Assembly (NCBI RefSeq): GCF_044324875.1
Contig: NZ_CP172185.1
Length of the DNA stretch: 64,000 nt
Direction: 5' to 3' (one strand)
Source: Escherichia coli
GTDB taxonomy: Bacteria > Pseudomonadota > Gammaproteobacteria > Enterobacterales > Enterobacteriaceae
The translations under genes and the position numbers were made by a program. Every line of letters starts with the position of its first letter. The stretch's first letter is position 1. Shown here in pieces: positions 45,221 through 48,578 of the stretch. The notes beneath the pieces are model-generated. The model saw only the letters and a program-made list of their open reading frames with translations. It did no database searches and was not told the DNA's origin.

Positions 45221-45476
45221 GTTGTGTAACCTGTTGTTAATTACATCCGATCTCACCGCGTGGGGCATGGATGGGGCAAACTCACTCTATCCTAGATTCT
45301 ACGTCAGTACTTCAAAAAGCATAATCAAAGCCTTGATAAATATGCATTCCTTCGAAATTCAGCTTTCACCCATTGGGTGAAAGAAAAGTGCTCAAAAATA
45401 TGTTAAATTATCAGCTTTTATGACTCGATATATGGTAAAATAATAGTAAGAAAAGTAGTAAAAAGGGGTTCTAATT

Positions 45477-46739
45477 ATGATTAATAAAATTGATTTCAAA
45501 GCTAAGAATCTAACATCAAATGCAGGTCTTTTTCTGCTCCTTGAGAATGCAAAAAGCAATGGGATTTTTGATTTTATTGAAAATGACCTCGTATTTGATA
45601 ATGACTCAACAAATAAAATCAAGATGAATCATATAAAGACCATGCTCTGCGGTCACTTCATTGGCATTGATAAGTTAGAACGTCTAAAGCTACTTCAAAA
45701 TGATCCCCTCGTCAACGAGTTTGATATTTCCGTAAAAGAACCTGAAACAGTGTCACGGTTTCTAGGAAACTTCAACTTCAAGACAACCCAAATGTTTAGA
45801 GACATTAATTTTAAAGTCTTTAAAAAACTGCTCACTAAAAGTAAATTGACATCCATTACGATTGATATTGATAGTAGTGTAATTAACGTAGAAGGTCATC
45901 AAGAAGGTGCGTCAAAAGGATATAATCCTAAGAAACTGGGAAACCGATGCTACAATATCCAATTTGCATTTTGCGACGAATTAAAAGCATATGTTACCGG
46001 ATTTGTAAGAAGTGGCAATACTTACACTGCAAACGGTGCTGCGGAAATGATCAAAGAAATTGTTGCTAACATCAAATCAGACGATTTAGAAATTTTATTT
46101 CGAATGGATAGTGGCTACTTTGATGAAAAAATTATCGAAACGATAGAATCTCTTGGATGCAAATATTTAATTAAAGCCAAAAGTTATTCTACACTCACCT
46201 CACAAGCAACGAATTCATCAATTGTATTCGTTAAAGGAGAAGAAGGTAGAGAAACTACAGAACTGTATACAAAATTAGTTAAATGGGAAAAAGACAGAAG
46301 ATTTGTCGTATCTCGCGTACTGAAACCAGAAAAAGAAAGAGCACAATTATCACTTTTAGAAGGTTCCGAATACGACTACTTTTTCTTTGTAACAAATACT
46401 ACCTTGCTTTCTGAAAAAGTAGTTATATACTATGAAAAGCGTGGTAATGCTGAAAACTATATCAAAGAAGCCAAATACGACATGGCGGTGGGTCATCTCT
46501 TGCTAAAGTCATTTTGGGCGAATGAAGCCGTGTTTCAAATGATGATGCTTTCATATAACCTATTTTTGTTGTTCAAGTTTGATTCCTTGGACTCTTCAGA
46601 ATACAGACAGCAAATAAAGACCTTTCGTTTGAAGTATGTATTTCTTGCAGCAAAAATAATCAAAACCGCAAGATATGTAATCATGAAGTTGTCGGAAAAC
46701 TATCCGTACAAGGGAGTGTATGAAAAATGTCTGGTATAA
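45477..46739 (+). CDS. tnpA: ISEcp1 transposase (IS1380 family)
   Basis: 420 aa MINKIDFKAKNLTSNAGLFLLLENAKSNGIFDFIEND...; matches the ISEcp1 transposase. Confidence 0.9.
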   Translation: MINKIDFKAKNLTSNAGLFLLLENAKSNGIFDFIENDLVFDNDSTNKIKMNHIKTMLCGHFIGIDKLERLKLLQNDPLVNEFDISVKEPETVSRFLGNFNFKTTQMFRDINFKVFKKLLTKSKLTSITIDIDSSVINVEGHQEGASKGYNPKKLGNRCYNIQFAFCDELKAYVTGFVRSGNTYTANGAAEMIKEIVANIKSDDLEILFRMDSGYFDEKIIETIESLGCKYLIKAKSYSTLTSQATNSSIVFVKGEEGRETTELYTKLVKWEKDRRFVVSRVLKPEKERAQLSLLEGSEYDYFFFVTNTTLLSEKVVIYYEKRGNAENYIKEAKYDMAVGHLLLKSFWANEAVFQMMMLSYNLFLLFKFDSLDSSEYRQQIKTFRLKYVFLAAKIIKTARYVIMKLSENYPYKGVYEKCLV

Positions 46740-46842
46740 TAAGAATATCATCAATAAAATTGAGTGTTGCTCTGTGGATAACTTGCAGAGTTTATTAAGT
46801 ATCATTGCAGCAAAGATGAAATCAATGATTTATCAAAAATGA

Positions 46843-46872
46843 TTGAAAGGTGGTTGTAAATAATGTTACAAT
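46843..46872 (+). promoter_or_regulatory. ISEcp1 outward-reading promoter driving blaCTX-M (-35 TTGAAA, 18-bp spacer, -10 TACAAT)
   Basis: Hexamers at 46843-46848 and 46867-46872 inside the ISEcp1 3' end, upstream of IRR; ISEcp1 is known to supply the promoter for downstream bla genes. Confidence 0.7.
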
Positions 46873-47026
46873 GTGTGAGAAGCAGTCTAAATTCTTCGTG
46901 AAATAGTGATTTTTGAAGCTAATAAAAAACACACGTGGAATTTAGGTTAGACTATAAATAGAAAAAGGCGTTTTGACAGACTATTCATGTTGTTGTTAAT
47001 TCGTCTCTTCCAGAATAAGGAATCCC

Positions 47027-47902
47027 ATGGTTAAAAAATCACTGCGTCAGTTCACGCTGATGGCGACGGCAACCGTCACGCTGTTGTTAGGAAGTGTGCC
47101 GCTGTATGCGCAAACGGCGGACGTACAGCAAAAACTTGCCGAATTAGAGCGGCAGTCGGGAGGAAGACTGGGTGTGGCATTGATTAACACAGCAGATAAT
47201 TCGCAAATACTTTATCGTGCTGATGAGCGCTTTGCGATGTGCAGCACCAGTAAAGTGATGGCCGTGGCCGCGGTGCTGAAGAAAAGTGAAAGCGAACCGA
47301 ATCTGTTAAATCAGCGAGTTGAGATCAAAAAATCTGACTTGGTTAACTATAATCCGATTGCGGAAAAGCACGTCGATGGGACGATGTCACTGGCTGAGCT
47401 TAGCGCGGCCGCGCTACAGTACAGCGATAACGTGGCGATGAATAAGCTGATTTCTCACGTTGGCGGCCCGGCTAGCGTCACCGCGTTCGCCCGACAGCTG
47501 GGAGACGAAACGTTCCGTCTCGACCGTACCGAGCCGACGTTAAACACCGCCATTCCGGGCGATCCGCGTGATACCACTTCACCTCGGGCAATGGCGCAAA
47601 CTCTGCGTAATCTGACGCTGGGTAAAGCATTGGGTGACAGCCAACGGGCGCAGCTGGTGACATGGATGAAAGGCAATACCACCGGTGCAGCGAGCATTCA
47701 GGCTGGACTGCCTGCTTCCTGGGTTGTGGGGGATAAAACCGGCAGCGGTGACTATGGCACCACCAACGATATCGCGGTGATCTGGCCAAAAGATCGTGCG
47801 CCGCTGATTCTGGTCACTTACTTCACCCAGCCTCAACCTAAGGCAGAAAGCCGTCGCGATGTATTAGCGTCGGCGGCTAAAATCGTCACCAACGGTTTGT
47901 AA
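47027..47902 (+). CDS. blaCTX-M-1: Class A extended-spectrum beta-lactamase CTX-M-1 (CTX-M group 1)
   Basis: 291 aa [28 protein letters not shown]...; S-T-S-K, SDN and KTG motifs; variant residues V77, D114, S140, D240, N288 fit CTX-M-1 rather than CTX-M-3 or -15; 80-bp spacer from the ISEcp1 IRR. Confidence 0.9.
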
Positions 47903-47948
47903 TAGCGGAAACGGAATGGGGAAACTCATTCCGTTTTTGTTTATCGCC

Positions 47949-48293
47949 TTAGACGGCAAAAGCGCTGTCGCCCACCTGCGCTTGCGCATACCAGGCCATA
48001 AGCTCCGTGGTTCCTGGTTCTCCTTCCGCTGGCGCCCAGTGCGCATAGTCATCGGCAGCCACGGGTTGATAGCCACCGTGTTTTACTTCAAAAATTATGC
48101 CACCGGTATCCAGCGACAGCACGGCATGCCAGGTTCCTGCGGCCATCTCCAGCACCGTACAGGTTTCCCCCAATATCGCCCGATGGGTGACGGTACCCCG
48201 ATCGTCAAAATTCAGCACCACGAAACGACCCCTTAATGGCAACAGTAGTTCGAAGGTGTGAGGGTGTCGGTGCGGGCGCACGTAGGTTCCTGG
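47949..48293 (-). pseudogene. Truncated orf477 (WbuC-family cupin) carried downstream of blaCTX-M
   Basis: Minus-strand frame ...HRHPHTFELLLPLRGRFVVLNFDDRGT...; 5' end removed at the transposition-unit boundary. Confidence 0.7.
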
Positions 48294-48578
48294 TCTATTT
48301 CTGGTTTAAAATGGATACCTGATCCTGAACGTTTTCTGCCATCCACGATCCGTAAACGCAATAAACCCTTTGACCATCAGAGTGTCTCATTTGACACTCA
48401 TCACCACGTCGGATGTTGTTACGACCACAGACGCAACAGTAACCTCTGGATAATTTAATCTTCGTTCTTATTTTTATTAATATACTGCGTTATAAAAATG
48501 AGCGATTTTTGATAGTGGTAATTTTATTGTGCTTTAGAATGCTCCCTGGGTAATATAATTTATTAAACAGGAGTGTAA

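Follow-up and report, generated by a model that had tools for sequence, protein, structure and literature searches.

Chromosomal copies of ISEcp1-blaCTX-M-1 have been published, each isolate carrying them at a different site (PMC8926264), and ISEcp1 transposition units flanked by AT-rich 5-bp duplications have been documented in chromosomes (PMC9325909). The locus analysed here lies in a 64,000-nucleotide stretch of Escherichia coli DNA (the window), and its closest relatives are found on epidemic IncI1 (ST3-type) plasmids such as pIFM3804 (NC_023329.1), in which a unit of 100% identical sequence with identical ends sits in the shufflon by pilV. There the unit is flanked by TAAAAA (6 bp), whereas in the window it lies in the chromosome downstream of fliE between copies of TCTAT (5 bp). 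The same 3,003-bp unit is also present in other E. coli chromosomes, between ydgJ and blr with the repeat TAATA in strain 4600, in at least eight copies in AVS0747, and in UDGP01000003.1; these copies resemble ours in lying between short AT-rich repeats in intergenic parts of the chromosome, but they occupy other insertion sites and none has the fliE junction. A further relative, the ISEcp1-blaCTX-M-15 unit between yedK and yedF in MLI105, shares the insertion sequence, the mobilisation mechanism, the orf477 passenger and the chromosomal neighbourhood, but it encodes CTX-M-15 behind a 48-bp spacer, has another right end because of a Tn2 tnpA fragment, and is inserted about 5 kb away.

The mobile unit spans positions 45291-48293 of the window (3,003 bp) and consists of ISEcp1, an 80-bp spacer, blaCTX-M-1 and a 5′-truncated orf477. 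All coordinates and lengths in the original prediction were reproduced base for base, including the pentamer TCTAT that it had placed on both sides, at 45286-45290 on the left and 48294-48298 on the right. This 5-bp target site duplication directly adjoins both ends of the unit, and with a frequency of TCTAT in the window of 5.2e-4 per position, chance does not explain the pair together with the unit ends. The uninterrupted form of the site carries a single TCTAT. Removal of the unit and one TCTAT gives exactly the sequence of strain PS1Phumofeces1 (NZ_CP180609.1; 60-nt core match), whose locus also served as reference for the flank coordinates, its flank being identical to the window at 397 of 400 positions. 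Among 5,426 complete E. coli genomes, 1,521 contain the rejoined empty site uninterrupted, so that joining the flanks does restore a natural site, and E. coli chromosomes align with the surrounding 24 kb as two colinear pieces, lacking only the unit.

ISEcp1 is complete, as had been claimed, occupying 1,656 bp on the plus strand (45291..46946) with imperfect terminal inverted repeats and an intact transposase, and copies of the same sequence carry the annotation “IS1380-like element ISEcp1 family transposase.” Its left inverted repeat (IRL, 45291-45304) begins CCTAGATTCTACGT, and the right one (IRR, 46933-46946) shares 12 of 14 positions with it; a 20-nt stretch of the IRL occurs once in the 64 kb and in none of 100 shuffles. 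The tnpA gene (45477..46739, plus strand) encodes a 420-aa DDE transposase of the IS1380 family, matching NCBIfam NF033539 with 329.6 bits (cutoff 180) over residues 4-408 of 420, and its DNA is identical to sequence annotated as WP_000608644.1. Since ISEcp1 is intact, the unit should still be able to move. [quoted passage not shown]

The resistance gene follows the 80-bp spacer between the IRR and its ATG (46947..47026, plus strand). The original prediction took this length to be typical of CTX-M-1 contexts, which agrees with the published composition of the blaCTX-M-1 spacer, 48 bp plus 32 bp (PMC6202452); a CTX-M-15 copy among the loci compared (L004) has a 48-bp spacer. blaCTX-M-1 itself, a cephalosporin-resistance gene encoding a class A beta-lactamase of CTX-M group 1, is full length (47027..47902, plus strand; 291 aa and a stop codon) and matches the blaCTX-M profile NF033089 with 623.2 bits (cutoff 570), covering residues 1-291 of 291. 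Its assignment to the CTX-M-1 allele had been read from V77, D114, S140, D240 and N288 (80, 117, 143, 242 and 289 in precursor numbering). These are the five residues by which it differs from CTX-M-15, and the DNA is byte-identical to coding sequences annotated as CTX-M-1 (WP_013188473.1; AMRFinderPlus identity 100%), which bears the assignment out. Directly 3′ of bla, on the same strand, RNA folding reveals a hairpin with a 17-bp stem (47904..47941), the 3′ arm of which finishes within the T-rich run GTTTTTGTTT (47933-47942). It folds at −23 kcal/mol (z = −7.5), with none of 200 shuffles folding equally well, and probably acts as the terminator of bla transcription. The hairpin is absent from the list produced by the consensus scan and clear on folding.

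Beyond the hairpin lies orf477 (47949..48293, minus strand), a WbuC-family cupin gene lacking its 5′ end; it matches profile positions 43-132 of 132 in TIGR04366 and is annotated in RefSeq as “incomplete; missing N-terminus.” This remnant is Kluyvera-derived passenger DNA. It contains the surrogate right inverted repeat, IRRalt (48280..48293, minus strand; CCAGGAACCTACGT as the reverse complement), so that the segment does end 3,003 bp from the IRL at an IRR-like sequence, as had been predicted. The likeness of IRRalt to the IRL, 10 of 14 positions, is weak and non-significant taken alone, and we dropped it as stand-alone evidence, since eight sites in the 64 kb match as well; what establishes IRRalt as the true end is its recurrence at many independent sites. 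Indeed, when known ISEcp1/blaCTX-M contexts were compared, many IncI1 and IncF plasmids and other chromosomes proved to carry the unit with 100% identity along all 3,003 bp, and 17 retrieved loci contain it as an exact string. The same two end bases occur at 13 other distinct sites, each with its own flank repeat of 4-6 bp (among them TAATA, TTATA, TCAGA, TTGTG, AATTA, TTGAA, ACATA, TGACA and TAAAAA), from which it follows that this is a discrete unit that has transposed repeatedly.

The flanks are ordinary chromosomal DNA, in accordance with the original prediction: core genes stand on both sides in chromosomal order (fli operons, yedK/L/F/E, amyA and fliC), and fli operons, yedK/L, DsrA and RseX extend across the whole window. 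On the left, fliE (44906..45220, plus strand; coordinates from the RefSeq annotation of PS1Phumofeces1, the ORF being present here) ends with a stop codon 66 bp from the duplicated pentamer. On the right, a 99-bp integrase pseudogene remnant (48295..48393, minus strand; annotated “integrase, incomplete” in PS1Phumofeces1, 3314-3412 there) is followed by a yedN-type DUF5503 pseudogene (48579..49693, plus strand; [quoted passage not shown] in the same annotation), the ORFs of which are split into 48579-49382 and 49478-49693 within a low-GC islet (GC 0.32-0.39). The unit thus lies between fliE and yedN as predicted, upstream of the yedN pseudogene and with no intact gene disrupted, but the site is not purely intergenic, for the stop codon TAG of the integrase remnant (CTA on the plus strand) falls inside the duplicated pentamer. 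We considered a hotspot for ISEcp1 in the fli-yed region and rejected it: two other genomes have ISEcp1 in the same 24 kb, against about five expected under uniform insertion by our own rough estimate (1,126 chromosomal places, 5,426 genomes).

Taken as a whole, these observations are very probably explained by transposition of an already formed 3,003-bp unit to a place downstream of fliE, where bla would be driven by the ISEcp1 promoter. An existing unit would have moved into an AT-rich site of the E. coli chromosome 66 bp downstream of fliE, the IS1380-family transposase using the IRL together with the surrogate right end in orf477 and bypassing ISEcp1's own IRR. This choice of end would carry bla along and leave the 5-bp TCTAT duplication, and transcription of blaCTX-M-1 from the outward TTGAAA-18-TACAAT promoter would then give a chromosomally inherited ESBL, expression and resistance phenotype being predicted from the sequence. 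The original prediction had proposed a one-ended ISEcp1 transposition; transposition into the chromosome stands, given the duplication and the empty site, but it was not a new capture, because identical copies with identical ends on IncI1/IncF plasmids and other chromosomes indicate that the unit was pre-formed. The donor was probably a plasmid of the IncI1 type. As the unit stops at its standard right end it would bring no trace of the donor replicon, and consequently a plasmid donor and another chromosomal copy would look alike.

This particular insertion appears to be unrecorded, since 400-bp queries spanning the junctions reached at best 54% coverage in the 5,426 complete genomes, meaning that neither junction is present there, and an exact scan of JGI metagenome contigs with the 38-mer junction GGGGCAAACTCACTCTATCCTAGATTCTACGTCAGTAC gave no match. 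Exact look-up of a 66-aa ORF crossing the right junction returned no record, and that of the CTX-M-1 protein returned only other chromosomal sites. These searches bear on the best surviving alternative, that transposition took place in another strain and the occupied fliE-yedN segment was later acquired by homologous recombination, with transduction and conjugation as possible routes. The fli-fliC region of E. coli is prone to recombination, and the best matches to the 24-kb flank are only 97-99% identical, as transfer of the segment would allow; yet no other carrier of the junction emerged from the genomes, the metagenome contigs or the junction-ORF look-up, and the scenario still requires the same original transposition, so that we regard it as very improbable.

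Slightly less credible again is an assembly artefact in which a plasmid-borne ISEcp1-blaCTX-M-1 contig was mis-joined into the chromosomal one. Although the identical unit is far commoner on plasmids (2,818 places vs. 1,126 chromosomal ones), a mis-join would not set both exact unit ends beside a duplicated pentamer or allow the natural empty site to be restored to the base once the unit is taken out, and there is no plasmid backbone between the flanks. The uninterrupted site restored by removing the unit and one TCTAT argues equally against integration of a whole IncI1 plasmid or larger segment, by homologous recombination or as a longer read-through unit, and subsequent deletion to 3 kb; despite precedents in whole IncI1/ST3 plasmids found in chromosomes (PMC8926264) and a 3,260-bp unit including 257 bp of IncI1 shufflon flank at one compared locus (L020), this is the least probable account, because the insert has exactly the standard length of 3,003 bp and its 5-bp duplication is intact, plasmid-derived bases are absent both before 45291 and between 48293 and 48294, and a later deletion would not recreate the duplication.

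Transposition of the pre-formed unit is an ordinary case of a well-documented process, for which the element and its ends, the promoter and the entry into chromosomes are all established already. No terminator was found between fliE and the IRL, where the sequence folds no better than shuffles, and read-through from the fliE promoter into ISEcp1 is therefore conceivable. A broader proposal joins three points, that this is the first record of the site, that it identifies a lineage in which CTX-M-1 has become fixed in the chromosome, and that FlhDC-dependent read-through from fliE could couple tnpA and mobility to the flagellar regulon; taken jointly we consider it a long shot.

The insertion brings no new mechanism, but it is clinically relevant and useful for typing and source tracking. 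It is reasonable to suppose that the unit is stable without plasmid selection. An ESBL gene in the chromosome is passed on vertically and hence not lost on plasmid curing, and such a gene also escapes plasmid-focused surveillance. With its intact ISEcp1 the unit should be able to hop back to plasmids, and the junction at which GGGGCAAACTCACTCTAT meets CCTAGATTCTACG provides a ready epidemiological tag that can mark a clone.

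Transposition of an ISEcp1-blaCTX-M-1 unit into the chromosome was borne out by three independent tests, namely the empty site, synteny, and repeated use of the same ends. Reading of window 45100-48500 together with an ORF listing gave a unit of 3,003 bp (45291-48293) bordered by TCTAT on the left (45286-45290) and on the right (48294-48298), a pentamer with a frequency of 5.2e-4 per position in the window, and every feature of the original prediction was recovered in its place. The left inverted repeat (IRL), CCTAGATTCTACGT, starts at 45291, and ISEcp1 (1,656 bp) runs to the end of its own right inverted repeat (IRR) at 46946, the two repeats sharing 12 of 14 bases; the 20-nt IRL has a single occurrence in the 64 kb and none in 100 shuffles. 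The 420-aa transposase ORF (45477-46739) belongs to the IS1380 family (NCBIfam, 329.6 bits, cutoff 180). A spacer of exactly 80 bp separates the IRR from the ATG of bla (291 codons, 47027-47902), a CTX-M family beta-lactamase (NCBIfam, 623.2 bits, cutoff 570), followed on the reverse strand by a gene fragment (47949-48293) that NCBIfam assigns to a WbuC-family cupin (C-terminal two-thirds, profile positions 43-132 of 132), the gene called orf477 in the resistance literature. The right end of the unit reads ...ACGTAGGTTCCTGG, and its reverse complement shares 10 of 14 bases with the IRL, by itself an unremarkable match, since eight IRL-like sequences at this level are present in the 64-kb window.

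Many records among the complete E. coli genomes and PLSDB plasmids match all 3,003 bp at 100% identity; their genes bear the annotations ISEcp1 transposase (WP_000608644.1) and CTX-M-1 (WP_013188473.1, AMRFinderPlus identity 100%), and the unit was byte-identical in 17 fetched loci by exact string matching. The allele had been predicted as CTX-M-1 from V77, D114, S140, D240, and N288 (precursor positions 80, 117, 143, 242, and 289), and these are indeed the five residues that differ from the CTX-M-15 of strain MLI105. The 80-bp spacer likewise fits the published description of blaCTX-M-1, which has another 32 bp beyond the 48 bp of blaCTX-M-15 (PMC6202452), and the MLI105 CTX-M-15 copy does have a spacer of 48 bp.

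Joining 45290 to 48299, that is, removing the unit and one TCTAT, restored a natural empty site as anticipated. It is exact in strain PS1Phumofeces1 (NZ_CP180609.1), with an identical 60-nt core, 397 of 400 matching bases and one TCTAT, and 1,521 of the 5,426 complete E. coli genomes have it in one unbroken piece. With the surrounding 24 kb as query, the alignment to E. coli chromosomes fell into two pieces that together covered 87%, all but the unit. The flanks proved to be ordinary chromosomal DNA, with the annotated order fliR to fliF, fliE, integrase remnant, DUF5503 (yedN) pseudogene, yedL, yedK, yedF, yedE, yedD, amyA, fliTSD, and fliC, and with the sRNAs DsrA (32606-32692, plus strand, 102.5 bits) and RseX (24182-24271, minus strand, 95.1 bits) identified by Rfam, as expected for this region. 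According to the RefSeq annotation of PS1Phumofeces1 transferred to the window, the insertion point is 66 bp past the stop codon of fliE (44906-45220), and the TCTAT duplication shares bases with the stop codon of an integrase pseudogene remnant of 99 bp on the minus strand (48295-48393), beyond which lies a frameshifted yedN-type DUF5503 pseudogene (48579-49693) in a stretch with a GC content of 0.32-0.39. The location was thus predicted correctly as lying between fliE and the yedN islet, the integrase remnant being an added detail, and no intact gene is broken at the site.

A less likely origin, acquisition through recombination of a segment that already held the unit, would still require the same original transposition, and no other carrier was found in the complete genomes, the JGI metagenome contigs or the look-up of the ORF at the right junction. 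An assembly mis-join would not leave a duplicated pentamer beside precise unit ends, nor an empty site that can be restored perfectly. Entry as part of a larger plasmid segment is excluded, because the duplication adjoins both ends of the unit with no extra base in between.

Transposition through these two ends is also seen elsewhere, as the identical unit with the same end bases occupies 13 further distinct sites spread over different replicons, with a flank repeat of its own at each; this reuse validates the surrogate 10/14 right end as functional. These are a chromosomal ydgJ-blr interval (TAATA), an IncI1/B/O plasmid close to the colicin Ia genes (TTATA), the traT-traD interval of an IncFIA plasmid (TCAGA), the vapBC-traI interval of a 205-kb plasmid (TTGTG), a chromosomal contig (UDGP01000003.1; AATTA), the IncI1 shufflon (TAAAAA), and the AVS0747 chromosome (TTGAA, ACATA, TGACA, TCACAA, TTATTA, TGATGA, and AATA). 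Four of the sites have 6-bp repeats (TAAAAA, TCACAA, TTATTA, and TGATGA) and one has a 4-bp repeat (AATA); in the 6-bp repeats, part of the extra base may be coincidental, given the AT-rich DNA. In the chromosome of AVS0747 (NZ_CP124467.1), an E. coli from wastewater, the 3,003-bp unit is present unchanged in at least eight copies, and a further copy is plasmid-borne, showing that the unit can amplify within one genome through repeated transposition.

In the established model, the ISEcp1 transposase recognises the IRL and a downstream IRR-like sequence, and all DNA between the two recognised ends moves (review PMC9330008; PMC9325909). In the present case, a pre-existing unit would have moved with reuse of its surrogate right end. 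The predicted one-ended transposition therefore stands as a surrogate-end move into the chromosome and not as a new capture, because epidemic IncI1 plasmids, among other places, already harbour the same 3,003-bp unit. No backbone DNA was carried along to mark the donor, and by frequency an IncI1-type plasmid is most probable. Direct evidence of this route comes from another genome (L020; GCA_050200285.1, JBLEVV010000001.1, locus 2264-5524), with a chromosomal ISEcp1-blaCTX-M-1 between sugE and blc/ampC. Its unit of 3,260 bp extends 257 bp past the usual 3,003-bp end, is identical there to the IncI1 shufflon flank, and has a CTTTA duplication that repeats the left flank after the 257 bp, a structure that reflects read-through as far as another surrogate end and points directly to an IncI1 plasmid as the donor.

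Expression of blaCTX-M-1 may be driven by the promoter TTGAAA-18-TACAAT at 46843-46872, which agrees with the published ISEcp1 outward promoter. A strong hairpin 3′ of bla (47904-47941; -23 kcal/mol, z = -7.5), with a T-rich run at the end of its 3′ arm, probably ends the bla transcript. The stretch from the fliE stop codon to the IRL (45221-45290) folds no better than its shuffles and lacks a consensus terminator, so that read-through from fliE into tnpA could occur.

In two other complete genomes, ISEcp1 has inserted independently within the same 24 kb of the fli-yed region, MLI105 in the yedK-yedF interval (ISEcp1-blaCTX-M-15-orf477Δ and a Tn2 tnpA fragment, L004 13980-17300) and TUM14759 in the fliC-fliA interval (L005 22862-24500), roughly the chance expectation given that chromosomal ISEcp1 copies are so numerous. 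The left end of the window (1-11000) is a prophage tail module (minor tail proteins, J, Lom-like membrane protein, and tail fibre), in which an IS21-family element (3475-6158, context 2032-8219) with istA (3579-5225), the istB helper ATPase (4999-5997), and five terminal direct repeats of about 19 nt (3477-3587) splits gene J, which encodes the central tail fibre of a lambdoid prophage, into N-terminal (2032-3474) and C-terminal (6159-8219) parts. An IS66-type element (tnpA, tnpB, and a 523-aa transposase; 11003-13618) follows, and then zinT, msrPQ, and hprRS.

The presence in chromosomes of ISEcp1-blaCTX-M units flanked by AT-rich 5-bp duplications is well documented (PMC9325909). Among Canadian animal isolates, blaCTX-M-1 was chromosomal in 6 of 51, with ISEcp1 upstream in four of the six and a different site in each isolate (PMC8926264), and in a collection of protein-indexed assemblies, 22 blocks contain CTX-M-1 on contigs of more than 1 Mb. 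The fliE-site junctions were absent from the 5,426 complete genomes (best junction coverage 54%) and from JGI metagenome contigs, and a look-up of the ORF crossing the right junction returned no match, so this insertion appears unrecorded in those collections. The element and the mechanism are already known and only the address is new; the finding has little discovery value and is useful for epidemiology.
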